Below are positions 2,583 to 62,329 of a stretch of 64,000 bases of DNA, piece by piece. A program made the position numbers and the translations under genes. How positions within the stretch are numbered: the first letter of the stretch is position 1; each line of letters starts with the position of its first letter. Below the pieces are notes generated by a model. The model searched no databases. It was given only the letters and a program-made list of their open reading frames with translations, and was not told where the DNA came from. The DNA is taken from NCBI GenBank assembly GCA_964016885.1, contig OZ024742.1, positions 45,260,001-45,324,000 of the forward strand, written 5' to 3'. The DNA is from Eledone cirrhosa. Taxonomy: Eukaryota.

Positions 2583-3477
2583 TCCAATAAAACAAAATAA
2601 TTGCTGAAAATAAGATTAAATCATTCTTTTAGTGTAAATTACTTCACTGTTCCTCGGAAGTGTTTAGAGTGTCACATACTTGAATAAAAGATCCATGTGT
2701 CTTGTGTTAGCTAAAGCTCGTTGCTATAAAGTAGTATTGCTCTGGTACCTGACAGAGTTAAATCTGCCCCAACTGGAGGAGGAATTCTTTAGCCTTGGTT
2801 GGTAACCATCTTAGAGATGGTCTCTCGATAAAAATATTGGTAGTCATATAGCCTTAAAACTACAACCCTCTGATAAGTAGAATGGCAAATAATAATTTAC
2901 TCCACAGCGGCGCGAATGATGCTGGAATCAATGGTGTCCCCTTGTACAGCAAGATGAACTCGGTCTTTACCTTATAAATGCTGGAAATGTTTAGACTATT
3001 TCACCTAAATTGAAAAGAGGAAAATTTGACGGATCCGAGCTCAATAGGACAGTTATGGAGGTACACATTCGAATCAAACTGAACACAATGCGGTCTATTG
3101 GCTCAAATTGGGTATATTTGATGTAAGAAAACAAATACTAAATAGCCAAGCTAGACAGATAAAAGCAAACGTGTGAATGACATAAGTGAATATCGAAGAG
3201 TTTATGAGAAGTGTTCAGAATTGAAGAAGGAAGTTATGATGGTGCATATGTCCTAGATTTTAGGACATCTGCACCATCTAGGACTTAGGTAATCAAGAGC
3301 ATGATGTTCTTGAGATAATACTAATACAGAACATAACTGAACCAAGAAATCTTATGTGAACTGACAAAACATGTAGAAGCTTATTTCATTGATTGGAAAT
3401 CTATTTTCTGTCTTCAGTGAATTGGTTCTCACGTGAAGAAGGTAAACAAAAAAACGACGCGTGTGTTTTATTAGATA

Positions 3478-5400: not shown

Positions 5401-5595
5401 ATAGGAAAAAGTATGACCCCGACGGCAGAGCTCAAGCCGTTTCGACGGCTATTTCTGGACAGAAATAGCCGTCGAAACGGCTTGAGCTCTGCCGTCGGGG
5501 TCATACTTTTTCCTATTACCCATTCTACTACCCTAAGTATTGAGTACTCTGGTGCGTTATGGTCCATCTGGTTCCTTACCACAACTCCTTCGTTA
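5401..5595 (+). mobile_element. Mini PLE insertion (fold-back pLTR) in (TA)n
   Basis: Perfect inverted arms 5401-5457 and 5460-5516 plus a tail to about 5595. Same family and same termini as 27534-30454. Confidence 0.75.
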
Positions 5596-6086
5596 TATAT
5601 ATATATATAGGGGTATAGGGGTCATCTCCCTTGTCTAATGCCATGTGCGTTTTTCACCGCTAGTTGACTCCTTTGCCGCCAGGATAAAACTCGTTGACAA
5701 CGTAAACTCCATTCCACTTATTCTAGTAGGCTTTTATATTTATATGTGAGCTGATAGAGTACTGTCTAAGGATTTACAGAAACCCATGAAGCTAGATTTA
5801 ACACCTTTCTAGTGGGTCCGGGTATGATTTTACATTCATTTAAATTATTGACGTATTGTTTTATTGATATTTTTTATCTGTTTGGCCCGAATCTTCCTTT
5901 ATCGATTTTAAATCGTATGGTTGATTGTAGACTTGTTCTATATGTGACGGTATTTTAACGATAGTTATAGCTCTGATTCATCTGAATTATTGAGCCCTCT
6001 GCCGCTCATATCGGATTTCGTTTTTCGTTAACTCGTGCGCCGATTTTTCGATACTCGATCTTTCTAATATATATATATATATATTA

Positions 6087-6251
6087 ATTTATTAAAATAA
6101 CAGATTAAAGTTAAGGGTGAAAGCAGCGATTCTTTGCTTAAACTTTAATCTGTTATTTTAATAAATATTTGCTCTACGGTTCTTATATATTTGATATATA
6201 TTTATCCTTATCGAGCCCTCTTTGGATTTTAGTCTTCAAATTTATTATTAT

Positions 6252-6255
<4 letters not shown>
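6087..6255 (+). mobile_element. Mini PLE-type pLTR with short terminal inversion
   Basis: 26-bp inverted arms 6087-6112 and 6141-6166, a hammerhead 3' half (GAAAgca...tgcTT) and (TA)n flanks. A second copy lies at 25805-25948 (-). Confidence 0.55.
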
Positions 6256-8099: not shown

Positions 8100-8102
<3 letters not shown>

Positions 8103-8558
8103 GATATTAAATAAATGGAAACTATATTTATAAAACCATATTTATTTCATTATATATATTTCAGGGATATCATATTAACAATATGTTATGCCTTCTTCAG
8201 ACAAAATACAATATAGACAGTTTTATAGATAAATAGATTTGACATACCGTTCAACATCGACTTGTATTTGAAAAAGTTGATTTGACTGCCAAATCAACTT
8301 TTTCAAATACAAGTCGATGTTGAACGGTATGTCAAATCTATTTATCTATAAAACTGTCTATATTGTATTTTGTCTGAAGAAGGCATAACATATTGTTAAT
8401 ATGATATCCCTGAAATATATATAATGAAATAAATATGGTTTTATAAATATAGTTTCCATTTATTTAATATCGTAAATATACTCCAAATACTTGTTGAGTG
8501 CTTTTATATCAGTTATAAATATTTACTAGTTGTAACCCAACAATTTAAATATAACTTT

Positions 8559-8562
<4 letters not shown>
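8100..8562 (+). mobile_element. Fold-back PLE pLTR insertion (185-bp perfect arms) in (TA)n
   Basis: Arms 8100-8284 and 8290-8474 with a 5-nt loop and an unpaired tail to about 8562. Contains a hammerhead motif. Confidence 0.75.
8366..8431 (+). ncRNA. Type I hammerhead ribozyme (mirror copy at 8143-8208 on -)
   Basis: tattttgt-CTGAAGA-agg...cct-GAAA-tatata-TA-atgaaata. Stem I is 8 bp with two G-U pairs. Confidence 0.7.
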
Positions 8563-8604
<42 letters not shown>

Positions 8605-8606
<2 letters not shown>

Positions 8607-8666
8607 GGATTAACAAATAATAGTTAAATGCAGTCCAACTTAGGTGGATGTAAACCTTCTTTCCTG

Positions 8667-8671
<5 letters not shown>
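8605..8671. mobile_element. 67-bp mini-insertion of the PLE family at 34802-37532
   Basis: Left part matches 34802-34842 and right part matches 37509-37532. (TA)n on both sides. Confidence 0.75.
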
Positions 8672-8710
<39 letters not shown>

Positions 8711-8761
8711 TGTATATATATATATATATACATACATATACTGTATATATATATGTGTACG

Positions 8762-9042
<281 letters not shown>

Positions 9043-16407: not shown

Positions 16408-18460
16408 TGTAGCAGGAGTGGCCTCCCTTGTTGTGACACTCACATCCCCAATAGATTAACGCTCTCTAGACAGGAAGTAGAACCCTTTCTGTAACTTCCG
16501 GTCAGAACCCTATAAAACTAACAACTTTAAGTTCTCTCTCTCTCATTTGCCTTTTCGGCTCCTGGCCTTTGCCAGGCGTCTTCGCCCAGGCGCGTCTTTT
16601 GCCAGGCGCGTTCGCCTGGCAACCAAAACGGTAACTAATAACTTTGCTTCATTCTTTCATCTATTCATTGACATGTCAACCTTACTGTTCTATATATCCA
16701 CAAATTGTTAATTAAATATTATACACACAAATCACGTCTCATGTTATATTCATACACACCAGTATTTTGTTATAAGTGGTGACCCCGAAAAAAGAAAAAA
16801 ATAGCAGAATCTGGTGTGTGTGAGTAACATTACGAATACGCAGCAAAATTTTATTGACAAACTATGAAAATACGCAGTCAAAGACACGAACACACGTACA
16901 TGTGAAATTCTCATTCAGACAGACTCTTTTTCCTCACGCATCCACTAACTGTCGCAGTTCACTGTATATATATATATGTTTCTCATTTCTTACAACGAAC
17001 ACTTTAAAAACAAACAAAAAAAAATAGAAATTTGATTTTTTTTTTTTTTAAACATTTCAACAGGAACATTTATTTTCGATGAATCTCAACCATTACCTTT
17101 TTTTTCATCGTTTTCTTCATCGTTCAAGTTTTTTTCAAAGTTCACACCAAAAAAAAAAATTGAACTCGCCATATTTGTTATACTAAGTGAAGCCTTTCTT
17201 TCTTTTTCATCATTGTCACTTTCACACACACATTTTTTCAAAATGGCTGCCAACGACCTGTTGCACTATCATTTTCTCGCTCAATAGAAATATTTTTTTC
17301 TTTCAACTTAACCTTGTATTGGCACGTGTAGGCTGCACAATTCTCGATTCACTGAGATAGCCGGACGCCATGAGATAACGTTTCTCGCCAAGGATTCTCC
17401 AGCCTTAAGCTATATTCTCCTATTTGCCGGTTTAAAAATTTACCACGTAAATTTGCCGTTGAAAACTGCGCATTTATTCAGAATGCTTATTTCTTTGGTC
17501 GCTGGCCTCTTGACCCTTCCAGGTCAGCGCATTCTCAACATCGACCATCAACTTCGGCTGTTATTTCTAGCACTTTGCGCAACTCATTTTTTCTGAAAAA
17601 ATTATTTTACTGTGAATTTAAACATCGAGTACGCTCACTCCGCGAGACAACAACATCAACAGCAACACAGATTCATCAACAACCAAAACCAGCAGAACAA
17701 GCCAGAGAATTTATTTTTGCAGCACTCTTCCTGTGATAAAATCCATTCGGAGGTTGGAAATTTCACGTTACACCACCTGCATTCATTCTATGGAACACAC
17801 TTTCTTTCCTGCTGTCGTGTGATTGCACACCTGTGAACAATATTTTGAACATTTGAACTTTGAGCTCTTCTTTTACTTTATTACATTGTATCTTTTAGTG
17901 ATGGATAGATAGATGTCCAGTCGTTCTCTGGCCAAGAGCGGTTGACTACCTTGATATCTATCATTGATTTTTGCAAACATTATTATTTTTTTTTTTTTTT
18001 CGTAATTTTCATGCCTGTTACAACATTCTCGCCAACTTACTACATACATATTTCATTCGATTTTATATTTTAAAAATCTGGCGCGGGATAATGTAGCAGG
18101 AGTGGCCTCCCTTGTTGTGACACTCACATCCCCAATAGATTAACGCTCTCTAGACAGGAAGTAGAACCCTTTCTGTAACTTCCGGTCAGAACCCTATAAA
18201 ACTAACAACTTTAAGTTCTCTCTCTCTCATTTGCCTTTTCGGCTCCTGGCCTTTGCCAGGCGTCTTCGCCCAGGCGCGTCTTTTGCCAGGCGCGTTCGCC
18301 TGGCAACCAAAACGGTAACTAATAACTTTGCTTCATTCTTTCATCTATTCATTGACATGTCAACCTTACTGTTCTATATATCCACAAATTGTTAATTAAA
18401 TATTATACACACAAATCACGTCTCATGTTATATTCATACACATCAGTATTTTGTGAAATA
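16408..18460 (+). mobile_element. Non-autonomous LTR retrotransposon, copy 1 (tRNA-Trp PBS)
   Basis: Near-identical direct repeats 16408-16774 and 18092-~18458. PBS TGGTGACCCCGA at 16777-16788, purine tract before 18092, non-coding interior of about 1.3 kb. Confidence 0.9.
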
Positions 18461-25757: not shown

Positions 25758-25809
<52 letters not shown>

Positions 25810-25949
25810 ATAATAAATTTGAAGACTAAAATCTAAAGAGGGCTCGATAAGGATAAATATATATCAAATATATAAGAACCGTAGAGCAAATATTTATTAA
25901 AATAACAGATTAAAGTTTAAGCAAAGAATTGCTGCTTTCACTCTTAACG

Positions 25950-26480
25950 GGATCTTCTGAAACTAACAAAGTCAATCTGTAAACGCAGAAGTGGATATTT
26001 CAAAGAACGTTGCAACCGCAGGAAGACAGGAAGACGATACTTTGTTTCGTGGAAACGTTCCCTGGCAAAGAACGGGAAAAAAACGAATATAATACGTCAT
26101 TAATAGGAGCGGTGAAAAGCAATTACACGCAAAGACAGAACCACGTTTATGGTATAAAAGAAGTCGTAGACTAATGTTCTTTTGGGTAGTTCATAGAAAC
26201 GTTCTCTGGCAATGAACGGAAAAAACGAAGATAATACGTCATATGTGGGGCGTGGAGAACAATTGCACGCAGACAAAACCACGTAAATGGTATAGCTGAA
26301 GTCGTAGACTAAAATTCTAACTAGGAAACCGAATGATTCTCCGCTTCAGAGTTAAGAATAAAGTAAATAAAATACAATACAGAGGTAATTGAAATTAAAT
26401 AAATACATACACGCATCCAAATACGTACATACACAAGCATACGCGAAAACACTCGCCATGGGTATACCACGCACATATAA
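25950..26480. repeat. Dispersed repeat homologous to the Helitron interior
   Basis: Inverse homology to about 30890-31350, with an internal tandem duplication of about 139 bp. Confidence 0.6.
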
Positions 26481-26906
26481 ATATGTGTGTGTGTGTGTGC
26501 GTGTATACAAATAAATAAGTAATTAAATAAACGTATATAAATAAATAAATACCTATATAACAAGCGCACACACATACCTACATGTAAATACACAAATGTT
26601 CGGAGACGTACGTCAACCAAAACATGAAGTACACGTATACACACACCCAACATATGTACGAACCCGCATACTCACACAGACGCAAAACTCCCGTATACAC
26701 ATAACCAAAAGCATATGTACCAGAATATATAAAAATATACGCCATAACATATAAAATCAAATATACGTACGAGAAAGTATACGTACCTTCACAAAACATA
26801 CAGGTAATATATACTTACCTATGCAAATAGGTAATGGTATAAACATAACATATACTTAGCTACCACATCAAGACGTAAAATATCCACGTATAGATCGTAC
26901 TATCCG

Positions 26907-27395
26907 TTAGGGTATAATGTGGGGCTGTAATACAGGAAAGTTTTGTGCAATTTGTTTACAAGCCGAAATTGCCTCAGATTTTTTGTTTAAGATGTGGTCT
27001 GTGGCGTAGAGTATTTCCAGGGCCTCAGCGGCGCAGAGGTCACATGGTCTTTTATTTCCGTTATATAATCTAGCCCTAGCTAGGATCTCCCAGTGTAACT
27101 TATATTGGGTGTGGTTGTCTTTTAGACTCCAGATATAAGCTGAAAGTGACGTCATATTCCTTCTTAGAGGGTAACGAAAAGAATGGGTATGCAGGTAAAG
27201 ACGCTGCTTGAATCTATTGGCGGTTAACCCTATGTAGGCCCTACGGGACGTGGGTGTTTCAACCTTACATTTGTAGACAATGTTACTAGAGAGGCATTTC
27301 CCGGATAGGGGGCAATCAACCCTATTCCTACAATTACAGTTAGTACTAACTACAGGGTTGCACGCTCTATATATACACTCTGCAAACTACAGCCG
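26907..27395 (-). mobile_element. Neptune-type PLE GIY-YIG endonuclease fragment
   Basis: CNCRNRVDCPLSGKCLSSNIVYKCKV...AYIGLTANRFKQR...H.HSFR...TSLSAYIWSLKD...CDLCAAE...LNKKSEAISACK. Confidence 0.9.
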
Positions 27396-27497
27396 CCTTA
27401 AACCTGGAACATAACCCAATGAGTGACAAACCCTGTAACAGCATCAAGTGCTTTGACCAACATCGCCACTAGTAACCACAAGTTATTTACATAATAA

Positions 27498-27536
<39 letters not shown>

Positions 27537-28185
27537 CAAAGGAATTGTGATAAGGAACCAGATCGACCATAACGCACGACAGTACTCAATACTTAGGGTA
27601 GTAGAGTGGGAAATAGGAAAAAGTATGACCCCGACGGCAGAGCTCAAGCCGTTTTGACGGCTATTTCTGGACTAAATTAGAATGTTTAGCCTGGTGAATA
27701 AATAGCCGAACTTTGGTAACCGCATGCAAACACAGATTGCGTAGGACTTACCTCGCCCTCAAACCCCATAACGACCGGGTGGGTAGACAATGGCTGATAA
27801 CCCCCCCCCCCCCTACACACACACACTTGCCGAATAAGTTAGGAGATACCCCAGCTTACATAGGTAGATGTATCTCTTTTATTTTCCTCTATGCCTTCAT
27901 CTTCCCCCTGTCTCATCCTATCACTTCCTCGTCTGCTTTTCCCCTTTCGCCTACCCCGATGCAGCCCATCGGGCCTTTGTAGCATCAGTTCCCCCACCCC
28001 TGTAATTTTAAGATAGAATTGGCCGAATACGTTTTACTAACTACTTATAGCAGATGTGTTAGACCCCTTTAATTTTGTTTCAGTTTTATTACTACTCCAT
28101 TTCTACAATTTTTTTCTATTCTCAACTTATTAACCTGTAATAGTAAGATAGCATGTGTTGTATCAGATGAAAGAATGGTATTTAA

Positions 28186-30022
28186 CTAATGTATTGGTAC
28201 GCGATGGGGCCCACCAACAGCCCCGGCGGACAGAATGGAGAAGGCGTTTCCCCGGAGGACGGCAAGGTAGACGCGCTGGAAAAGCCACTCCAACTCGTGG
28301 GGTTCACACCTGAGGCTGACCAGCTCAGCGCCTATAGTGGTGAGTAAAGAGGTAGCCCTGGGGCCGAGGACACCAGAAGTCTCCACTGCCAGGGGAACGA
28401 CCGCAATTTAAGGAGTTTGGCCCCCTCAGCCTTACGTGCAGCAGAACCTGGGTCAGTCGCAGACTGCACCAGGTTGCGGCTGCAGAAAGTGTCGGTGCAA
28501 GTGACATCCCAGACGAGGGCTTTGCCACCGCGGAACGGGAAGATGTTCATGCCATCTGGCCTTTTGCCGCCCCCTCGATCCAGCCCCACCGGCTCGAGCT
28601 GGGAAGGGAAGCCTGCAGCGTCCAAGCCATGCTTAATGACCTCGTTGAGGGCAGCATGGCGTGGAATGCGGCCTGCACTGTGGCGACAGGAAAGTGGGTG
28701 GAGGCCGAAAGCGTCCACGGTGGAACCGCAGCGACATTGGTGTGGCTGGCAGATCCGGAGGCCGAGCCTCAGGGAAACGCCGATTCGCAGGCTATGGTTG
28801 TCTAGCTGCGTGCCAGTGGGTAAGGAGGGCAGGGCATGGAGCCAGGTACCACTGTGGGGTTTGGAGACCGCACGAAAACAAGCAAGGCGGTGCTGGTCGA
28901 GCTAGCGCGTGAGCCTGTCTGAGGCCAGGCTGCACTGGATGGCATCCCAAGTGCGTTGGGGGGACTTGACGTCAACAAGGGGAGAAGGAGGAGGGACGTC
29001 TACTGGGCTAAGTCCCAGCCGGTCCCACGTCTCACAGGCGGCCTCGCGTTCTCTGAACACAGAGGGTTCTGTTGTGTTTTGAAGAACCCTGCTGACGAGG
29101 ACGTGGCATGATATTACCGACGAAAGATACGCCGGCAAAGCTAGTGAGATCGGGGACCGGAGGCCAAGGCCGACATACCTGACCGGTAAAGTGGCCTGTT
29201 GCCACCCTATGTCGTCAAACTTGACGTTGCATATCCCCTCGGCTGCTGCTCGGATACAAGTATCGAGGTCAGCGAGGAGAGATATCTGGCTGTAGCATGG
29301 AGCGCTGTGGAGTGTATAGAGGAGCTTTGGCATGGCGAAGCAGTTCCTCAGCAGAAAGAGAGCAGGGTGGCCGTCAATCAAGCCCAGTCGGCTCGTGAGA
29401 GTCTGGAGCTGTTGAAGCCTGGACCTGATGGTGGAGCGGATAGCCGGCGGGTGGATCGGTGACCCGATGATGAGGACATCCTCTTTGGGGGTCACCTGAA
29501 CCTGGCGGAGAATGGACTGCACGTCCAAGACGGAGGCTGCAAAGCTCGCAGCATCGAGGCTGACGTTCACCACCTCCGACTTGGCCGAGTTGACCTGGAG
29601 GCCGATTGCCGCCAGGGCAGGAATCACCGATTGAATGTCTTGGCAGACCGTCCGTACGGGCCCGCCCAACGTAGCATCATCCAGATACCAAACGTTGAGA
29701 GGGGCCGTGATACTCCGGGCGATGTGGTCAATACCAAGGGCGAACAGGAGAGGTCCCAACGGGTCGCCCTGTTGGACCCCAGTAGCCGAGGGTATGACCG
29801 TATCAGCAGCTAGGAGCATGCTCGGGGCTCCATATGACAGGTAGGCCAGCGGGTAGGCAGAGGGGGTTCGGCTGAGGCAGGCCTCGAGCAGATCATCCCC
29901 GGCATAAAGAGTTAAAGGCATTCCTCATGTCAAGCTTGACAATGAAGTGCCTGGAGTCTCTGGATGCCGGTACCAATGGGCAGCTGCTGAAGAACTGCCT
30001 GATTGCATGAGCGGCTCCTTCA
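28186..30022 (-). mobile_element. CRE-clade non-LTR retrotransposon (RT + CCHC + restriction-like endonuclease), 5' truncated
   Basis: KLDMRNAFN, GVQQGDPLGPLLF, WYLDD, GLGL, CRCG...H.LSC...RH, KRPDG...WDVTC and QR...RGNA. GC-rich, with frameshifts and stops. Confidence 0.85.
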
Positions 30023-30340
30023 TGTGATTTTTTTTATTCATTTCTCACTATCTAATTTTATATATATTTTTTTTAATTTCTATTATCTTTTATTGTCTCC
30101 TACTCTCATTCGAATTACCTATTCTATAACCTCCCTCCTCCTTTTCATACACTATCCTTAGAATCTGCTGTATACATATCACTTTCAACGCTTGACCGAC
30201 CGGCTCCACTCACTCCACTATTATTCTACAGGCAAGTTCAGCCACCCCTACCTCCCACCAAATGCCATGATAGACTTATTTGTGTTTACAACAAATTTTA
30301 ACCAATCCTCTTGACAACTACAATCTTCATATATAAGGAA

Positions 30341-30444
30341 GTACCCCATTGACAAGTTCGGCTATTTATTCACCAGGCTAAAAATTCTAATTTAGTCCAG
30401 AAATAGCCGTCGAAACGGCTTGAGCTCTGCCGTCGGGGTCATAC
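30341..30444 (+). ncRNA. Hammerhead ribozyme variant (U3-A8 core, long stem II, 5-bp stem III)
   Basis: gtacccca-TTGACAA-g..cggctattt...aaatagccg.c-GAAAC-ggc(ttgagctct)gcc-GTC-ggggt. Confidence 0.65.
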
Positions 30445-30449
30445 TTTTT

Positions 30450-30487
<38 letters not shown>

Positions 30488-34759: not shown

Positions 34760-34803
<44 letters not shown>

Positions 34804-35032
34804 GGATTAACAAATAATAGTTAAATGCAGTCCACTTAGGTGAAGTCCAGTTATGGTATTCCAGGTAGTGGATGATATTAACGCTTGGCTTGGTTTGACT
34901 CAACAAGGCGTTTTCATAGTGATGCTGCGGGTATGCTGTAATTCCTATGTTGTAAACACTTGGAGTAATATTAAATCAGGAAAGAAGGTTTACATGGTTT
35001 GCTATACAAAAAAGTTTTTAATCACATAGCTT

Positions 35033-36614
35033 CTAATCTTACCCATGATGAAATTGAAATAATAATAGCGGCTAGAAGGACTATCGTAAAATTTGAAAAT
35101 AACTACTGGGTAAGAAAGGATAGAATAAATAGCTTCGATATTACAATGGGATCAAATGATTCTGCGCAAATTACAGATATCGTGGGGCTATTCATAGCAC
35201 ACAACCTACATAAGGAATTCAGTAACCTCCAAGGAGGAATTTATAGGGACGACACGTTACTTATAGCTAGGAACCTAAACAACCAGAGCATGGAAAGACT
35301 AAGGAAAAATATTAGAATATTCTTCAAAAAACTAGGCCTAAGTATTACCTACGAACTAAACCATAAGAAGGTAAATTTCCTAGATGTAACTCTAAATCTA
35401 AATACTGGATTAATAGAACCTTTCCACAAAAATAATGAAAATCTTGCCTACATTAGTTACAACTCAAATCACCCCAAATCCATAATTAAATCCATAGCAC
35501 GTAGTATATCCCTCCGAATATCCCGCCTATCCTCAAACCTAGAAATCTTTAACGAGCATGCTGACTATTATAATGCAGCATTAAGTAGGGCCGGTCATAA
35601 AGATAAACTACAGTATATAGTGAATAAGGACAACATAAACAATCCTAGTAATTTCTACTCCAACCGCTCACATAATAATAGGAATAGCTTGACTAGACAT
35701 AGGGTTAGACATGTAACACCTAGAGTAAACGGCCAAAACACTAATAACGTAAACCCTAGAAACAATAGAAGAAACAGACAAAGAAAATACCTATGGTTCA
35801 ACCCAATATTCAACTCCTCTATAAAAACTAGACTGCCCTCTACATTCTTTAAACTAATAGATAAACACTTCCCTATCTCGCATAGATATCACAAAATACT
35901 CAATAGATCTACTATAAAACTCTCTTTCTCAACAGCAGCTAACATAGAATCACACATACGCAAGATCAACCACAGAAATATCTCAAGTAAATCAATTGCA
36001 CCTATACATAAGCACAAACTCATCACAACATCACAACCACAAGCGCATACAAACGCGCAGCAGCAAAACCCCATGGGGCATATATCACAACCCACTTATA
36101 ACAGGGTACTAAATAGGAATGTAAAAGCTGCACAAAATAGCGCCTCAAACTGCAACAGTCAGCTACCAGATAGGTGCCCATTGGCGAACAGATGTCTCGA
36201 TTCGAGCCTGGTGTACATGTGCACTGTCATCACGGGTAAACATAGGATTTATCGTGGGGCTATTCATAGCACACAACCTACATAAGGAATTCCATAGGAT
36301 CCACCGCGGGTTCTTTTAAGAAAAGATGGTATGTGCACAGGCACTCAATGAAAAATCGAGCACTTATGGGTTCCACCACCCTCGCCAGAAAAATATGGGA
36401 ATTGAAGGACAGCAACGCTAGCTACACTATCAACTGGTCGAAGTTGTCGGCTGCTAAAACCTATAGTACAGGGATGTCCTATTGCGGGCTGTGTGACCTT
36501 GAGCTATTGTATATCCTTAGAAATGTTAAAAGGCTACTTAATAATAAGTTAGAAAGATCTATCTTCTGCAGACATAGAATAGCCACTAAATTCATAAGAT
36601 TCAAACCTCCGTGA
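35033..36614 (+). pseudogene. PLE reverse transcriptase / GIY-YIG endonuclease (disrupted)
   Basis: ORFs 34999-36285 and 36333-36614. The first 11 codons of the called ORF come from the inverted pLTR, and an insertion breaks the YIG motif. Confidence 0.85.
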
Positions 36615-36942
36615 ATCGAACCAACATAACATAGCTTTAAATTAGGATACCTACTACCCACAGAAATATATTCATTAAGTATACTATTTCCTTCACAAGT
36701 CTATACCACACAATTGTCTGTAAATACCTCATCTACCAACAATCTTACTCCTTCTCAGCTGCTGCAATCATTTGATCCTAGATCCTAGTTTTTCTCATTT
36801 CACTACTACAATGTTACTTTACCTTCTTTTTGCCATAACTACAATTAGCACGCTTTTCTCTTTGCATGTATGTATATTTTTGTACGAGTGTATATTGATG
36901 TGTATGTATGTGTCTATGTACACATATATGTGTATATATATT

Positions 36943-37003
<61 letters not shown>

Positions 37004-37366
37004 AGATATATGCGTATATTAATTCGTTAACCTCTGTATTAACTCTACAACTATTGAGCTTTGACAGTGGTCCCACTCATGTATACTGTTGAAGATGAAG
37101 AGAAGGACTGTAAAAACTAGCTTATCTTTATAATTTAAAATTGATACACACTACGATACTTTTTGCCTTATGACAGCTGATTTTCACGCCGTAACATTAG
37201 ATACATTATATACCCCCCCCCCCCCACCTAAGTAATGTCAGGGTCTCCTTAAATAGTTTATTGATAGCATTGTTGTAATAATTGTTGTTGTTATTGTTCT
37301 AATTGAATGCCATAACTACTCCATATTTTCTTTTCTTTTCTTGCCTGTGTATTTTCTTCATTCTCG

Positions 37367-37479
37367 CATGCTCCGAAGATCTGACTGGTTATAATTCTGT
37401 ATTGGCGATCGAGTGACGCAAAATTAGGCGGATAGCGATCTCTAGACAGACCAGTTCAGTGAAACAAATGTAAGCTATG
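37367..37479 (+). ncRNA. pLTR hammerhead ribozyme (U4C core variant, long stem II)
   Basis: catgct-CCGAAGA-t-ctgactggt...accagttcag-t-GAAAC-aaat-GTA-agctatg, at the expected pLTR position. Confidence 0.7.
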
Positions 37480-37527
37480 TGATTAAAAACTTTTTTGTAT
37501 AGCAAACCATGTAAACCTTCTTTCCTG

Positions 37528-37601
<74 letters not shown>

Positions 37602-40011: not shown

Positions 40012-42023
40012 TATAGCGAAGATACTGGGTTGTATGAATGTAACAAGGAGACATGGTTTGTGTGTATAATATTTAATCAACAATTCAACAGTATAGTTGA
40101 CATGTCAAAGAAATAGATGAAAGAATGAAGCAAAGTTAGTAGTTACTGTTTTGATTGCCAGGCAAACGCGGCTGGCAGAAATCGCCTGGCGAAGGCCAGG
40201 CGCCGGTAGGGCTAATGAGAGGGTGAGAACTTAAAGTTATTAGTTTTATAGGGTTCTGACCGGAAGTTACAGAAAGGGTTCTACTTCCCGTCTAGATGTT
40301 GTTAATCTATTGGGGTTGTGAGTCACAACAAGGGGGGCTACTGCTACATAACCTCCCGCCAGAATTTTAGAATATAAAAATCGAATGAAATATGTAGCAA
40401 GTTGGCGAGAATGTTGTAACAGGCCTGAAAATTACGACAAAAGAATGTTTGCAAAAATCAATGATAGATATCAAGGTAGCCAACCGCTCTTGGCCAGAGA
40501 ACGACTGGACATCTATCTATCCATCACCCAAAGATACAATGTAATAAGGTAAGAGAAGAGCTCAAAGTTCAAATGTACAAAATATAGTTCACAGGTGTGC
40601 AATCACATGACAGCAGGAAAGAAAGTGTGTTCCAGAGAATGAATGCAGGTGGTTTCTGTTCTGTGGTATATCGTGAAATTTCCAACCTCCGAATGGATTT
40701 TCTCACAGGAAGAGAGCTGCAAAAATAAATTCTCTGGCTTGTTCTGCTGGTTTTGGTTGTTGATGAAGCTGTGTTGCTGTTGCTGTTGTTGTTGTCTCGC
40801 TGAGTGAGCGTATTCGGTGTTTAAATTCACAGTAAAAAAAAAGATTTTTCGGAAAAAAATGAGTTGCGCAAAGTGCTAGAAATAACAGCCGAAGTTGATG
40901 GTCGATGTTGAGAATGCGTTGACCTGGAAGGGTCAAGAGGCCAGCGACCAAAGAAATAAGCATTCTGAATAAATGCGCAGTTTTCAACGGCAAATTTACG
41001 TGGTAAATTTTTAAACCGGCAAATAGGAGAATATAGCTTAAGGCTGAAGAATCCTTGGCGAGAAACGTTATCTCTGGCGTGCGGCTATCTCTGTGAGTCG
41101 AGATATCTCTGTGAGTCGAGAATTTGAGCTGCCTACACGTGCCAATACAAGGTTAAGTTAGGTTAAAAAAAAATATATTTCTAACGCGCGAGAAAATGAT
41201 AGTGCAAGTGTGAAAGTGACAATGATGAAAAAGAAAGGCTTCACTTAGCATAATTATTGGTGTGAACTTTTGGGGAAAAAAAAAAAATAACTTGAACGAT
41301 GAAGAAAACGATGAAAAAAAAATAAACAATGGTTCTTCGAAAATAAATGTTCTTGTTGAAATGTTTTTAAAAAAATATCAAATTTCTTTTTTTGTTGTTA
41401 TTTTGGAAGTGTTCGTTGTAAGAAACGAGAAACATATATATATATATATCGTGAAATGCGACAGTTAGTTGATGCGTGAGAGAAAAAGTCTGTCTGAACG
41501 CGAATTTCACATGTGCGTGGTGTGTTCGTTTCTTTGACTGAGTATTTTCATAGTTTGTCAATAAATTTGTTGTGTATTCATAATGTTACTCACACAACAC
41601 CAGATTCTGCTATTTTTTATTTTTTCGGGGTGACCACTTATAGCGATGAACGGCTGCGTGTTCGTATCACGTCAGGGTTACCAATATAGCGGAGTACTCG
41701 TGCAATGTATGAATGTAACAAGGAGACATGGTTTGTGTGTATAATATTTAATCAACAATTTAACAGTATAGTTGACATGTCAAAGAAATAGATGAAAGAA
41801 TGAAGCAAAGTTAGTAGTTACCGTTTTGATTGCCAGGCAAACGCGGCTGGCAGAAGACGCCTGGCGAAGGCCAGGCGCCGGTAGGGCTAATGAGGGGGTG
41901 AGAACTTAAAGTTATTAGTTTTATAGGGTTCTGACCGGAAGTTACAGAAAGGGTTCTACTTCCCGTCTAGATGTTGTTAATCTATTGGGGTTGTGAGTCA
42001 CAACAAGGGAGGCTACTGCTACA
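40012..42023 (-). mobile_element. Non-autonomous LTR retrotransposon, copy 2
   Basis: LTRs 40012-40348 and ~41685-42023, TSD ACAC (40008-40011 and 42024-42027), PPT ggcgggagg, PBS at 41625-41636. Interior homologous to copy 1. Confidence 0.9.
41652..41683 (+). other. Copy of tRNA-Trp 3' end including CCA (extended PBS)
   Basis: ggctgcgtgttcgtatcacgtcagggttacca versus recalled metazoan tRNA-Trp end GGCTGCGTGTTCGAATCACGTCGGGGTCACCA (3 differences). Confidence 0.8.
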
Positions 42024-42182
42024 ACACTATCTGCTGTATGTGTAGTCTTATACACCTACAGCAGATAGTCTTATATAGTCTTATATTCCCGTGTCACATA
42101 TCTTTATCACTGTCAGCTGTATGTGTAAAGCATTGCAGTCCCTGTTGTATATCTTATTCTACAGTCAAGCTTCAACAACAGG

Positions 42183-42873
42183 TTTCTTTATGGTGAAAAA
42201 GATATCAATTTCTCCCTCATGTGGTTCTGCCTTTCTTTATGGTGAAGAAGATATCACTTTCTCCCTCATGTGGTTCTGCCTTTCTTTATGGTGAAGAAGA
42301 TATCACTTTCTCCCTCATGTGGTTCTGCCTTTCTTTATGGTGAAGAAGATATCACTTTCTCACTCATGTGGTTCTGCCTTTCTTTATGGTGAAGAAGATA
42401 TCACTTTCTCCCACATGTGGTTCTGCCTTTCTTTATGGTGAAGAAGATATCACTTTCTCCCTCATGTGGTTCTGCCTTTCTTTATGGTGAAGAAGATATC
42501 ACTTTCTCCCTCATGTGGTTCTGCCTTTCTTTATGGTGAAGAAGATATCACTTTCTCACTCATGTGGTTCTGCCTTTCTTTATGGTGAAGAAGATATCAC
42601 TTTCTCCCTCATGTGGTTCTGCCTTTCTTTATGGTGAAGAAGATATCACTTTCTCCCTCATGTGGTTCTGCCTTTCTTTATGGTGAAGAAGATATCACTT
42701 TCTCCCACATGTGGTTCTGCCTTTCTTTATGGTGAAGAAGATATCACTTTCTCCCACATGTGGTTCTGCCTTTCTTTATGGTGAAGAAGATATCACTTTC
42801 TCACTCATGTGGTTCTGCCTTTCTTTATGGTGAAGAAGATATCACTTTCTCCCTCATGTGGTTCTGCCTTTCT
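42183..42873. repeat. 49-bp minisatellite
   Basis: Unit tttctttatggtgaagaagatatcactttctccctcatgtggttctgcc, about 14 copies. Confidence 0.97.
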
Positions 42874-42947
42874 TCCCACAGTTCAAATCTTCATATGTGT
42901 TACCTTATATCTGTTATAAGTATCACACCCCAGTTTCCTTTGTATTC

Positions 42948-45880
42948 CATGGTTATATCACACATCTCATGGTTCACTACACTGTCATCTCACACATCTC
43001 ATGGTTCACTCCACTGTCATCTCACACATCTCATGGTTCACTCCACTGTCATCTCACACATCCCATGGTTCACTACACTCTCATCTCACACATCTCATGG
43101 TTCACTACACTGTCATCTCACACATCTCATGGTTCACTCCACTGTCATCTCACACATCTCATGGTTCACTCCACTGTCATATCACACATCTCATGGTTCA
43201 CTCCACTGTCATCTCACACATCTCATGGTTCACTCCACTGTCATCTCACACATCTCATGGTTCACTACACTGTCATCTCACACATCTCATGGTTCACTCC
43301 ACTGTCATCTCATACATCTCATGGTTCACTCCACTGTCATCTCACACATCCCATGGTTCACTACACTCTCATCTCACACATCTCATGGTTCACTCCACTG
43401 TCATCTCACACATCCCATGGTTCACTACACTGTCATCTCACACATCTCATGGTTCACTACACTGTCATCTCACACATCTCATGGTTCACTACACTCTCAT
43501 CTCACACATCCCATGGTTCACTACACTATCATCTCACACATCTCATGGTTCACTACACTGTCATCTCACACATCTCATGGTTCACTACACTATCATCTCA
43601 CACATCTCATGGTTCACTACACTGTCATCTCACACATCTCATGGTTCACTCCACTGTCATCTCACACATCCCATGGTTCACTACACTCTCATCTCACACA
43701 TCTCATGGTTCACTACACTCTCATCTCACACATCTCATGGTTCACTACACTCTCATCTCACACATCTCATGGTTCACTCCACTGTCATCTCACACATCCC
43801 ATGGTTCACTACACTGTCATCTCACACATCTCATGGTTCACTACACTGTCATCTCACACATCTCATGGTTCACTACACTGTCATCTCACACATCTCATGG
43901 TTCACTAGACTGTCATTTCACACATCCCATGGTTCACTACACTGTCATCTCACACATCTCATGGTTCACTAGACTGTCATCTCACACATCTCATGGTTCA
44001 CTACACTGTCATCTCGCACATCTCATGGTTCACTCCACTGTCATCTCACACATCTCATGGTTCACTCCACTGTCATCTCACACATCCCATGGTTCACTCC
44101 ACTGTCATCTCACACATCCCATGGTTCACTCCACTGTCATCTCACACATCCCATGGTTCACTACACTGTCATCTCACACATCTCATGGTTCACTACACTG
44201 TCATCTCACACATCTCATGGTTCACTACACTGTCATCTCACACATCTCATGGTTCACTACACTGTCATCTCACACATCTCATGGTTCACTAGACTGTCAT
44301 TTCACACATCCCATGGTTCACTCCACTGTCATCTCACACATCTCATGGTTCACTCCACTGTAATCTCACACATATCATGGTTCACTCCACTGTCATCTCA
44401 CACATCCCATGGTTCACTCCACTGTCATCTCACACATCTCATGGTTCACTACACTGTCATCTCACACATCTCATGGTTCACTACACTGTCATCTCACACA
44501 TCTCATGGTTCACTACACTGTCATCTCACACATCCCATGGTTCACTACACTGTCATCTCACACATCCCATGGTTCACTACACTGTCATTTCACACATCCC
44601 ATGGTTCACTACTCTGTCATCTCACACATCTCATGGTTCACTACACTGTCATCTCACACATCCCATGGTTCACTACACTGTCATCTCACACATCTCATGG
44701 TTCACTACACTGTCATCTCACACATCTCATGGTTCACTACACTGTCATTTCACACATCCCATGGTTCACTACACTGTCATCTCACACATCTCATGGTTCA
44801 CTACACTGTCATCTCACACATCTCATGGTTCACTACACTGTCATCTCGCACATCTCATGGTTCACTCCACTGTCATCTCACACATCTCATGGTTCACTAC
44901 ACTGTCATCTCACACATCTCATGGTTCACTACACTGTCATCTCACACATCCCATGGTTCACTACACTGTCATCTCACACATCTCATGGTTCACTCCACTG
45001 TCATCTCACACATCTCATGGTTCACTCCACTGTCATCTCACACATCTCATGGTTCACTACACTGTCATCTCACACATCCCATGGTTCACTACACTGTCAT
45101 CTCACACATCTCATGGTTCACTCCACTGTCATCTCACACATCTCATGGTTCACTCCACTGTCATCTCACACATCTCATGGTTCACTACACTGTCATCTCA
45201 CACATCCCATGGTTCACTACACTGTCATCTCGCACATCTCATGGTTCACTACACTGTCATCTCACACATTTCATGGTTCACTCCACTGTCATTTCACACA
45301 TCTCATGGTTCACTACACTGTCATCTCACACATCTCATGGTTCACTCCACTGTCATCTCGCACATCTCATGGTTCACTACACTGTCATCTCGCACATCTC
45401 ATGGTTCACTCCACTGTCATCTCACACATCTCATGGTTCACTACACTGTCATCTCACACATCCCATGGTTCACTCCACTGTCATCTCACACATCTCATGG
45501 TTCACTACACTCTCATCTCACACATCTCATGGTTCACTCCACTGTCATCTCACACATCTCATGGTTCACTACACTGTCATCTCACACATCTCATGGTTCA
45601 CTACACTCTCATCTCACACATCTCATGGTTCACTACACTGTCATCTCACACATCTCATGGTTCACTCCACTGTCATCTCACACATCCCATGGTTCACTCC
45701 ACTGTCATCTCACACATCCCATGGTTCACTCCACTGTCATCTCACACATCCCATGGTTCACTACACTGTCATCTCACACATCCCATGGTTCACTCCACTG
45801 TCATCTCACACATCTCATGGTTCACTCCACTGTCATCTCACACATCTCATGGTTCACTACACTGTTATTTCATGGTTAAC
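42948..45880. repeat. 32-bp minisatellite
   Basis: Unit catggttcact(a/c)cactgtcatctcacacatc(t/c), about 90 copies. Confidence 0.98.
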
Positions 45881-50394: not shown

Positions 50395-53300
50395 TTTGTC
50401 TGTTGATTCTGTGAGTACACCACCATCGCCAGACAAGTCTTGTCTGGTGATTCTGTGAGTACACCACCATCACCAGACAATTCTTGTCTGGTGATTCTGT
50501 GAGTACACCACAATCACCAGGCAAGTCTTGTCTGGTGATTCTGTGAGTACACCACCATCACAAGACAAGTCTTGTCTGGTGATTCTGTGAGTACACCACC
50601 ATCACCAGACAAGTCTTGTCTGGTGATTCTGTGAGTACACCACCATCACCAGACAAGTCTTGTCTGGTGATTCTGTGAGTACACCACAATCGCCAGACAA
50701 GTCTTGTCTGGTGATTCTGTGAGTACACCACAATCACCAGACAAGTCTTGTCTGGTGATTCTGTGAGTACACCACAATCGCCAGACAAGTCTTGTCTGGT
50801 GATTCTGTGAGTACACCACCATCACCAGACAAGTCTTGTCTGGTGATTCTGTGAGTACACCACAATCGCCAGACAAGTCTTGTCTGGTGATTCTGTGAGT
50901 ACACCACCATCACCAGACAAGTCTTGTCTATTGATTCTGTGAGTACACCACAATCACCAGACAAGTCTTGTCTGTTGATTCTGTGAGTACACCACCATCA
51001 CCAGACAAGTCTTGTCTGGTGATTCTGTGAGTACACCACAATCGCCAGACAAGTCTTGTCTGGTGATTCTGTGAGTACACCACCATCACCAGACAAGTCT
51101 TGTCTGGTGATTCTGTGAGTACACCACAATCACCAGACAAGTCTTGTCTGGTGATTCTGTGAGTACACCACAATCGCCAGACAAGTCTTGTCTGTTGATT
51201 CTGTGAGTACACCACAATCGCCAGACAAGTCTTGTCTATTGATTCTGTGAGTACACCACAATCGCCAGACAAGTCTTGTCTGTTGATTCTGTAAGTACAC
51301 CACAATCGCCAGACAAGTCTTGTCTGTTGATTCTGTGAGTACACCACAATCGCCAGACAAGTCTTGTCTATTGATTCTGTGAGTACACCACAATCGCCAG
51401 ACAAGTCTTGTCTGTTGATTCTGTGAGTACACCACAATCGCCAGACAAGTCTTGTCTATTGATTCTGTGAGTACACCACAATCGCCAGACAAGTCTTGTC
51501 TGTTGATTCTGTAAGTACACCACAATCACCAGACAAGTCTTGTCTATTGATTCTGTGAGTACACCACAATCGCCAGACAAGTCTTGTCTGTTGATTCTGT
51601 GAGTACACCACAATCGCCAGACAAGTCTTGTCTGTTGATTCTGTGAGTACACCACAATCACCAGACAAGTCTTGTCTGTTGATTCTGTGAGTACACCACA
51701 ATCGCCAGACAAGTCTTGTCTGTTGATTCTGTGAGTACACCACAATCACCAGACAAGTCTTGTCTGTTGATTCTGTGAGTACACCACAATCACCAGACAA
51801 GTCTTGTCTGGTGATTCTGTGAGTACCCATAATCACCAGGCAAGACTTGTCTGGTGATTCTGTGAGTACACCACAATCGCCAGACAAGTCTTGTCTGTTG
51901 ATTCTGTGAGTACACCACAATCGCCAGACAAGTCTTGTCTGTTGATTCTGTAAGTACACCACAATCGCCAGACAAGTCTTGTCTGTTGATTCTGTGAGTA
52001 CACCACAATCGCCAGACAAGTCTTGTCTATTGATTCTGTGAGTACACCGCAATCGCCAGACAAGTCTTGTCTGTTGATTTTGTAAGTACACCCCAATCAC
52101 CAGACAAGTCTTGTCTATTGATTCTGTGAGTACACCACAATCGCCAGACAAGTCTTGTCTATTGATTCTGTGAGTACACCACAATCGCCAGACAAGTCTT
52201 GTCTGTTGATTCTGTGAGTACACCACAATCGCCAGACAAGTCTTGTCTATTGATTCTGTAAGTACACCACAATCGCCAGACAAGTCTTGTCTGTTGATTC
52301 TGTGAGTACACCACAATCGCCAGACAAGTCTTGTCTGTTGATTCTGTGAGTACACCACAATCACCAGACAAGTCTTGTCTGTTGATTCTGTGAGTACACC
52401 ACCATCACCAGACAAGTCTTGTCTGGTGATTCTGTGAGTACACCACAATCGCCAGACAAGTCTTGTCTGGTGATTCTGTGAGTACACCACCATCACCAGA
52501 CAAGTCTTGTCTGGTGATTCTGTGAGTACACCACAATCACCAGACAAGTCTTGTCTGGTGATTCTGTGAGTACACCACAATCGCCAGACAAGTCTTGTCT
52601 GTTGATTCTGTGAGTACACCACAATCGCCAGACAAGTCTTGTCTATTGATTCTGTGAGTACACCACAATCGCCAGACAAGTCTTGTCTGTTGATTCTGTA
52701 AGTACACCACAATCGCCAGACAAGTCTTGTCTGTTGATTCTGTGAGTACACCACAATCGCCAGACAAGTCTTGTCTATTGATTCTGTGAGTACACCACAA
52801 TCGCCAGACAAGTCTTGTCTGTTGATTCTGTGAGTACACCACAATCGCCAGACAAGTCTTGTCTATTGATTCTGTGAGTACACCACAATCGCCAGACAAG
52901 TCTTGTCTGTTGATTCTGTAAGTACACCACAATCACCAGACAAGTCTTGTCTATTGATTCTGTGAGTACACCACAATCGCCAGACAAGTCTTGTCTGTTG
53001 ATTCTGTGAGTACACCACAATCGCCAGACAAGTCTTGTCTGTTGATTCTGTGAGTACACCACAATCACCAGACAAGTCTTGTCTGTTGATTCTGTGAGTA
53101 CACCACAATCGCCAGACAAGTCTTGTCTGTTGATTCTGTGAGTACACCACAATCACCAGACAAGTCTTGTCTGTTGATTCTGTGAGTACACCACAATCAC
53201 CAGACAAGTCTTGTCTGGTGATTCTGTGAGTACCCATAATCACCAGGCAAGACTTGTCTGGTGATTCTGTGAGTACAGCACAATCGCCAGACAAGTCTTG

Positions 53301-56300
53301 TCTGTTGATTCTGTGAGTACACCACAATCGCCAGACAAGTCTTGTCTGTTGATTCTGTAAGTACACCACAATCGCCAGACAAGTCTTGTCTGTTGATTCT
53401 GTGAGTACACCACAATCGCCAGACAAGTCTTGTCTATTGATTCTGTGAGTACACCGCAATCGCCAGACAAGTCTTGTCTGTTGATTCTGTAAGTACACCC
53501 CAATCACCAGACAAGTCTTGTCTATTGATTCTGTGAGTACACCACAATCGCCAGACAAGTCTTGTCTATTGATTCTGTGAGTACACCACAATCGCCAGAC
53601 AAGTCTTGTCTGTTGATTCTGTGAGTACACCACAATCATCAGACAAGTCTTGTCTGTTGATTCTGTGAGTACACCACAATCATCAGACAAGTCTTGTCTG
53701 GTGATTCTGTGAGTACACCACAATCGCCAGACAAGTCTTGTCTGGTGATTCTGTGAGTACACCACAATCACCAGACAAGTCTTGTCTGGTGATTCTGTGA
53801 GTACACCACAATCGCCAGACAAGTCTTGTCTGGTGATTCTGTGAGTACACCACCATCACCAGACAAGTCTTGTCTGGTGATTCTGTGAGTACACCACAAT
53901 CGCCAGACAAGTCTTGTCTGGTGATTCTGTGAGTACACCACCATCACCAGACAAGTCTTGTCTATTGATTCTGTGAGTACACCACAATCACCAGACAAGT
54001 CTTGTCTGTTGATTCTGTGAGTACACCACCATCACCAGACAAGTCTTGTCTGGTGATTCTGTGAGTACACCACAATCGCCAGACAAGTCTTGTCTGGTGA
54101 TTCTGTGAGTACACCACCATCACCAGACAAGTCTTGTCTGGTGATTCTGTGAGTACACCACAATCACCAGACAAGTCTTGTCTGGTGATTCTGTGAGTAC
54201 ACCACAATCGCCAGACAAGTCTTGTCTGTTGATTCTGTGAGTACACCACAATCGCCAGACAAGTCTTGTCTATTGATTCTGTGAGTACACCACAATCGCC
54301 AGACAAGTCTTGTCTGTTGATTCTGTAAGTACACCACAATCGCCAGACAAGTCTTGTCTGTTGATTCTGTGAGTACACCACAATCGCCAGACAAGTCTTG
54401 TCTATTGATTCTGTGAGTACACCACAATCGCCAGACAAGTCTTGTCTGTTGATTCTGTGAGTACACCACAATCGCCAGACAAGTCTTGTCTATTGATTCT
54501 GTGAGTACACCACAATCGCCAGACAAGTCTTGTCTGTTGATTCTGTAAGTACACCACAATCACCAGACAAGTCTTGTCTATTGATTCTGTGAGTACACCA
54601 CAATCGCCAGACAAGTCTTGTCTGTTGATTCTGTGAGTACACCACAATCGCCAGACAAGTCTTGTCTGTTGATTCTGTGAGTACACCACAATCACCAGAC
54701 AAGTCTTGTCTGTTGATTCTGTGAGTACACCACAATCGCCAGACAAGTCTTGTCTGTTGATTCTGTGAGTACACCACAATCACCAGACAAGTCTTGTCTG
54801 TTGATTCTGTGAGTACACCACAATCACCAGACAAGTCTTGTCTGGTGATTCTGTGAGTACCCATAATCACCAGGCAAGACTTGTCTGGTGATTCTGTGAG
54901 TACACCACAATCGCCAGACAAGTCTTGTCTGTTGATTCTGTGAGTACACCACAATCGCCAGACAAGTCTTGTCTGTTGATTCTGTAAGTACACCACAATC
55001 GCCAGACAAGTCTTGTCTGTTGATTCTGTGAGTACACCACAATCGCCAGACAAGTCTTGTCTATTGATTCTGTGAGTACACCGCAATCGCCAGACAAGTC
55101 TTGTCTGTTGATTCTGTAAGTACACCCCAATCACCAGACAAGTCTTGTCTATTGATTCTGTGAGTACACCACAATCGCCAGACAAGTCTTGTCTATTGAT
55201 TCTGTGAGTACACCACAATCGCCAGACAAGTCTTGTCTGTTGATTCTGTGAGTACACCACAATCGCCAGACAAGTCTTGTCTATTGATTCTGTAAGTACA
55301 CCACAATCGCCAGACAAGTCTTGTCTGTTGATTCTGTGAGTACACCACAATCGCCAGACAAGTCTTGTCTGTTGATTCTGTGAGTACACCACAATCACCA
55401 GACAAGTCTTGTCTGTTGATTCTGTGAGTACACCACCATCACCAGACAAGTCTTGTCTGGTGATTCTGTGAGTACACCACAATCGCCAGACAAGTCTTGT
55501 CTGGTGATTCTGTGAGTACACCACCATCACCAGACAAGTCTTGTCTGGTGATTCTGTGAGTACACCACAATCACCAGACAAGTCTTGTCTGGTGATTCTG
55601 TGAGTACACCACAATCGCCAGACAAGTCTTGTCTGTTGATTCTGTGAGTACACCACAATCGCCAGACAAGTCTTGTCTATTGATTCTGTGAGTACACCAC
55701 AATCGCCAGACAAGTCTTGTCTGTTGATTCTGTAAGTACACCACAATCGCCAGACAAGTCTTGTCTGTTGATTCTGTGAGTACACCACAATCGCCAGACA
55801 AGTCTTGTCTATTGATTCTGTGAGTACACCACAATCGCCAGACAAGTCTTGTCTGTTGATTCTGTGAGTACACCACAATCGCCAGACAAGTCTTGTCTAT
55901 TGATTCTGTGAGTACACCACAATCGCCAGACAAGTCTTGTCTGTTGATTCTGTAAGTACACCACAATCACCAGACAAGTCTTGTCTATTGATTCTGTGAG
56001 TACACCACAATCGCCAGACAAGTCTTGTCTGTTGATTCTGTGAGTACACCACAATCGCCAGACAAGTCTTGTCTGTTGATTCTGTGAGTACACCACAATC
56101 GCCAGACAAGTCTTGTCTGTTGATTCTGTGAGTACACCACAATCGCCAGACAAGTCTTGTCTGTTGATTCTGTGAGTACACCACAATCGCCAGACAAGTC
56201 TTGTCTCTTGATTCTGTGAGTACACCACAATCGCCAGACAAGTCTTGTCTGTTGATTCTGTAAGTACACCACAATCGCCAGACAAGTCTTGTCTGTTGAT

Positions 56301-62300: not shown

Positions 62301-62329
62301 AGTCTTGTCTGGTGATTCTGTGAGTACAC
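50395..62329. repeat. 44-bp palindromic satellite array (about 270 units) with higher-order repeats
   Basis: Unit tgtct(g/a)(g/t)tgattctgtgagtacaccacaatc(a/g)ccagacaagtct. A 43-nt variant recurs. Confidence 0.98.

Follow-up and report, generated by a model that had tools for sequence, protein, structure and literature searches.

The window analysed here, 64,000 nucleotides of contig OZ024742.1 from the Eledone cirrhosa genome (3.0 Gb), contains a 67-bp insertion (8605-8671, listed as L067) in a (TA)n tract, and a 2.7-kb copy of a Penelope-like element (PLE) that carries the same two termini (Table 1). We call the terminus found at 34802 in the long copy B and that at 37532 A. The sequence-only reading had claimed that the insertion starts like the long copy at 34802 and ends like it at 37532, within (TA)n, and both matches and the TA flanks were found: on sequence comparison 8605-8646 equals 34802-34842 save for one extra A in the 67-bp copy, and 8648-8671 is identical to 37509-37532. 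The two segments were also correctly placed on one pLTR in opposite orientation, about 170 nt apart, with end A lying reversed inside the inverted arm of the long copy. The insertion is not the minimal one that it had been taken for, as A-B copies of 35 bp (L073) and 49 bp (L076) exist; and the 2.7-kb PLE, rightly named as the source family, is not itself the parent but a 5'-truncated copy of a unit of 3,527 bp.

Table 1. Coordinates of the 67-bp insertion, its target tract and the long copy of the same family in the window
Feature	Position	Strand	Remarks
67-bp insertion, left (TA)n target tract	8561..8604	.	single C at 8604; tract common to the adjoining fold-back of another family
67-bp insertion, arm B	8605..8646	-	5' UTR from unit position 231 back to 191, in inverted orientation; carries an extra A
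67-bp insertion, junction base	8647..8647	.	one inserted G
67-bp insertion, arm A	8648..8671	+	unit positions 38 to 61, sense
67-bp insertion, right (TA)n target tract	8672..9039	.	
Long copy, inverted arm B	34802..35032	-	231 nt; site A inside near 34973; ends one base beyond the predicted ribozyme cut
Long copy, sense arm ending at A	35036..37532	+	5'-truncated ORF, 3' UTR and ribozyme, then the 5' UTR up to its nucleotide 61
Long copy, ORF remnant	35014..36611	+	RT, linker and GIY-YIG-type nuclease; broken near 36238-36287
Long copy, type I hammerhead-like fold	37364..37482	+	core CCGAAGA; putative, no Rfam match

In the long copy, three inserted bases separate arm B from the sense arm, and the break in the ORF holds a copy of 35178-35220. 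No target-site duplication can be read for the 67-bp copy inside (TA)n. In contigs from 4 sequencing runs both ends were covered, none of these contigs running across the junction. Its left TA tract also borders a 371-bp fold-back of a further family (8102-8560), which has a like layout: its arms are 99% identical, it carries an 88-nt one-sided tail and both its ends lie at (TA)n. Ends of other families lie in the same TA tract in the flanks of L066, L072, L152, L190 and L196 as well, so these TA tracts collect insertions. Elsewhere in the window, 16408-18454 holds a small LTR-type element (363-bp direct repeats, 99.7% identical, with a TG start and a primer-site-like sequence after the first), of which 40019-42027 is an 81% relative, and tandem arrays of 49, 32 and 44 bp units (14, 91 and 272 copies) lie at 42183-45872 and 50396-62329.

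A complete parent unit is present at L061:4164-7690. Its single ORF (794 aa, from unit position 282; L061:4445-6826) encodes, as read by eye, a reverse transcriptase with YRDD and, C-terminally, a GIY-YIG-type nuclease domain (LVY...YIG). At E<=0.001, 69 homologues of the protein were found, and Pfam and PDB searches with it gave no significant match. RWK and DKT (DKG changed to DKT) are present in it and in most homologues; the CxCX5C linker reads CNCHLPDRC, CxxC reads CGLC and CxH reads CRH, and inspection of 16 aligned proteins by eye revealed no conserved cysteine pair (CCHH) within the nuclease core. The parent is thus a PLE with Hydra-clade protein motifs, from which its probable clade is read. 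The 3' end of the unit is predicted to adopt a type I hammerhead-like fold with a long stem II and the core CCGAAGA (weak z, -1.3), for which an Rfam search returned no match. We take the ribozyme to cut after 37472 of the window, assuming the hammerhead consensus. Sites A (unit 60-61) and B (unit 230-231) both lie 3' of this predicted cut and 5' of the start codon, in the 5' UTR, and are spaced by about 170 nt.

The evidence on these ends comes from genomic copies in one assembly. Across the whole genome, exact ends joined to TA number 316 for A and 429 for B, which shows insertion into (TA)n; since reversed control patterns gave 0, ends at TA exceed chance. In 33 loci picked by a ribozyme anchor that holds neither end, the sense arm terminates at A (27 loci) or B (6 loci); a few of these loci are paired arms from a single insertion, and one arm with end A has no TA after it. 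Of the two fixed priming sites proposed from the sequence alone, the fixed ends are therefore upheld in 33/33 anchor loci, and it is by analogy with in vitro work on the Poseidon clade (PMC11167929) that we infer priming at A and B. Among 71 B-anchored copies, end A is exact (TTTA) in 52, two to three bases shorter in 11, three bases longer in 4, and altered by point changes in 4. In the template, B is followed by TATAT, which would let a TA primer pair over 5 nt; no other TATAT/ATATA exists among the unit's first 300 nt. At A, no more than 2-3 bases could pair. An older lineage of the family (L003, L006 and the second insertion at L153) carries a B end of different sequence, TTACCCC, at this position: the location of the site is conserved although its bases are not.

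As a rule the two ends occur together, one of each per insertion. The pairing sample consisted of all exact ends on C1 and C2 to 269.4 Mb (77 A and 100 B), the whole genome having an estimated 430-500 copies or so. Within 12 kb, 50 facing pairs were found, and all 50 are A-B. Reading the 77 unpaired ends added 31 A-B copies with a variant far end, one B-B copy (L142) and no A-A copy; 7 others are two-armed with the far end missing and 38 are one-armed or interrupted, about half of the latter running directly into TA as judged by eye. Hence 81 of 82 two-ended copies are A-B, one is B-B and none A-A (P ~3e-23 against an independent 50:50 choice), and the 45 of 127 regions read that are not two-ended (38 + 7) carry no information on pairing. 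The rule leaks: besides the B-B copy here, one A-A copy occurs in each of two other families of the window, whose ends, classed by eye from 3-kb loci, pair as in this family at other spacings. (i) Family 1 (5404-5593) has 3,712 exact ends spaced by 77 nt; of 30 loci, 20 are A-B, 2 have their B side shortened, two belong to a single A-A insertion, 5 have one arm and 1 is out of range. (ii) Family 3 (6085-6254 and 25807-27499) has 13,921 exact ends spaced by about 85 nt; 30 loci comprise 13 A-B, 1 A-A and 16 one-armed or out of range. In family 1 most copies measure 170-240 bp, and the point where both arms stop, 55-70 nt upstream of the inner end, is much sharper than in the family of the 67-bp copy (family 2). 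The minus-strand ORFs of the long copy of family 1 (27536-30451) look, judging from their motifs, like a restriction-like-endonuclease LINE. The nuclease remnant of family 3 (27347-26922) is 38% identical to the family 2 protein.

For the junctions we compared 96 A-B copies: the 81 two-ended ones, 13 short ones, L002 and the long copy of the window. L066 was dropped because it is the same locus as L128, and L086 and L124 (internal deletion, nested insert) are excluded from the counts over 79 and 94 copies. The lengths form a continuous series from 35 bp up to 8 kb, with all 96 junctions different. This bears on a unit of MITE type, or a preformed A-B composite, copied as such with its ends inherited, which the sequence-only reading had expected to reveal itself by one identical junction in all short copies. 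When up to one mismatch is allowed, the junction of the 67-bp copy is found a single time in the genome, whether or not the extra A is included; a genome-wide gap pattern retrieved 14 copies of up to 146 bp (smallest 35 bp), all different; and the A and B ends are not inverted repeats of each other. One junction does recur, at L241 and L249, as copying of a unit would produce, yet it sits on the ribozyme stem, which offers microhomology there. We regard such a unit as highly improbable.

The joins themselves are direct in 47/94 copies and carry inserted bases in the other 47/94, a few of these "inserts" being lineage variants or alignment gaps. Microhomology of 2-6 nt is present in 28 of the 47 direct joins against about 8.5 expected. 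Local templating of inserts is clear in L088, L092, L125 and L079, most of the 30 single cases being within chance. The spectrum of microhomology and inserts resembles polymerase-theta end-joining. L002, L005 and the 67-bp copy share a break of arm B at the base of a small hairpin (unit 191), and in L005 and L079 arm B ends in a short fold-back copy of itself.

By itself the 67-bp copy is ordinary repeat debris; its value is that of a clean example of non-overlapping arms. It might instead have arisen from a longer A-B insertion through loss of the central part after integration, a history compatible with two-site priming of the family: inverted arms are deletion-prone, and the extra A indicates that this copy is not brand new. 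The 67 bp fall, however, within the continuous size series, and the 14 short copies, picked by exact end matches, show 0 private substitutions in 1,295 sites, so we judge later deletion unlikely. Arms without common template are also found in 16 of 79 unselected copies, the arms overlapping in the other 63, and these non-overlapping copies are not older than the rest (3.2 against 3.8 private substitutions per kb). The longer arm is B in some copies (B 3748/A 359) and A in others (B 688/A 5254), and arm A lies within the reach of arm B in only 29/79 copies and extends beyond it in 50/79.

The two arms of a copy have a common source. Where the arms overlap (61 copies), they disagree at 39 polymorphic sites, against 263 expected between copies; of 174 minor alleles 135 occur on both arms, as do 25 private variants, and 103 private variants are on one arm. 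At lineage sites (6-16 per copy, with several lineages present) 39/48 copies are fully concordant, 9 differ at one site and none at more, which puts one source haplotype on both arms in all 48 of the testable copies. A weaker test, free of arm-to-arm conversion, gave agreement in 51/62 against 62% when shuffled (p 0.015; one tail site, 18 copies), and the three copies that it found wholly discordant are lineage-concordant where their arms overlap. The common haplotype fits one RNA or two RNAs of one active locus, and arm conversion may add to it. Five arms are longer than one unit, and their two passes differ by 0, 1, 0, 0 and 9 bases, compatible with a circular or tandem template.

The stops of the two arms lie within 10 nt of each other in 9/79 copies against 1.6 when shuffled. 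Stops are concentrated over unit 3411-3424 (12 against 2.5, in an interval chosen after seeing the data), which marks the ribozyme's 5' edge and carries an initiator-like TCATTC. A common RNA 5' end would explain the cluster, as would a palindrome there that favours joining. Two other candidates were rejected. The predicted ribozyme cut is passed by 133/136 arms and is not the main stop (3 against 1.6 expected, not significant). A cap-derived extra G at a start near unit 3415 is not indicated either: the 11 junctions show 8 G and 3 A, and most of the G come from arm B sequence.

How one insertion acquires two such arms has been approached in two ways: self-priming has been proposed (PMC3846280), and the one-sided tail has been ascribed to nuclease resolution (PMC8557442). 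Combined, they give the main alternative to two primings, in which priming occurs once, at B, the cDNA folds back and serves as its own template, the hairpin is cut by the nuclease at A, an AT-rich site, and the resulting palindrome loses its centre unevenly. Such a course accounts for A-B pairing and for identical arms, including the 25 private variants on both, as well as for coincident stops (13/79 within 30 nt against 4.0), the palindromic junctions of L080 and L136 and the fold-back bases at the junctions of L005 and L079; site A is AT-rich with ATT motifs, and this motif is cut in vitro (PMC11167929). But fold-back gives a second arm nested in the first, so the non-overlapping copies need either separate copying or later uneven deletion, and with arm A beyond arm B in 50/79 copies and no common template in 16/79 a large one-sided deletion would be needed in most copies; L093 would need more than 4 kb lost from one side only. 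Arm asymmetry does not increase with age (rho -0.14, p 0.28, 62 copies), a 422-bp perfect palindrome persists at L136, and in vitro two start sites on the RNA have been described (PMC11167929). We consider this course unlikely.

The reading that we prefer, and hold to be probable, is that reverse transcription starts from both strands of a cut (TA)n tract, with one strand priming at A and the other at B on RNA from a single source, after which the truncated cDNAs are end-joined. It is favoured over simple fold-back by the arms without common template in 16/79 copies and by the 67-bp copy; on the other side, fold-back followed by central deletion would likewise yield identical arms, A-B pairing, coincident stops and microhomology. 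Under double priming, the nuclease would cut both strands of the tract and each freed 3'-OH would prime reverse transcription; base pairing with the TA primer would help to select the sites, over 5 nt at B and over 2-3 nt at A. Both arms would come from one RNA molecule, not from two RNAs of one locus, and host end-joining would seal the junction between the two truncated cDNAs. Longer arms in the same event would yield the inverted repeat and the one-sided tail of the long copies. As the arms overlap in 63/79 copies, one RNA would be copied twice over the same stretch, by putative strand displacement.

Compared with known systems, these insertions show both likenesses and differences. (i) In L1 twin priming both target ends prime, the 3' tail receiving the first primer and a variable site upstream of it the second, and the arms do not overlap. 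The elements described here would share with it the use of both target ends, and do share the inversion and the junction microhomology; in contrast, both sites are fixed and internal and the arms overlap in 63/79, and on both counts we rejected L1-type twin priming as the class to which they belong. (ii) Hydra is a clade of PLEs with a C-terminal endonuclease (Craig et al. 2021, PMC8557442). The parent resembles it in the single ORF, RWK, DKT, CxCX5C, CxxC, CxH, the (TA)n targets and a predicted hammerhead-like fold, and differs from it in its length (3,527 bp against "generally <3 kb") and in the ribozyme core CCGAAGA, which is not canonical. (iii) In vitro, the protein of the anole Poseidon element PAc cuts and extends both strands, with two internal start sites that bound a 30-40 bp tail and with uncut RNA as its main substrate (Frangieh et al. 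2024, PMC11167929). Here, too, two fixed internal ends lie downstream of the ribozyme at an AT-rich target, and the arms pass the ribozyme cut (133/136), as expected of uncut RNA. However, the clade is another one, the spacing is about 170 nt instead of 30-40, both ends are in the 5' UTR and not in the ORF, and B can pair over 5 nt with the target; the main text of that paper, as available, is silent on one insertion using one site per strand. (iv) The long copies have exactly the published PLE layout, in which the pLTR is inverted and 5'-truncated and one end bears a tail (PMC8557442, PMC3846280 and PMC2377424). It has been ascribed to self-priming or to nuclease resolution; here the non-overlapping arms argue against simple fold-back. 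The portions available of PMC2377424, PMC4209133, PMC7229834 and 10.64898/2026.07.22.740005 offer no further mechanism for these ends.

Two start sites as such are not a new idea, having been published in vitro, and neither is the layout; what is new is the A-B pairing rule, the common source of the arms and the long spacing. Among papers open without subscription, our search found no published statement of the pairing rule and none that applies twin priming to PLEs.

A stricter form of double priming, which we advance tentatively as a possibility, would make it obligate and asymmetric: one particle with one RNA engages DNA ends at A and B, the RNA is copied twice by strand displacement, and the host joins the ends. 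If this is true, the inverted pLTR with its one-sided tail, whose origin is left open in the available parts of PMC8557442, PMC3846280 and PMC11167929, would be a direct print of the mechanism, the spacing would be specific to each family (77, 85, 88 and 170 nt in the window), and second-strand priming of the LINE type would be unneeded. Together, the pairing rule, the common source and the non-overlapping arms turn the matter into a yes/no question for an existing in vitro system, and would add to the Poseidon clade, as a case of two-site initiation, a Hydra-type element whose spacing is much longer.
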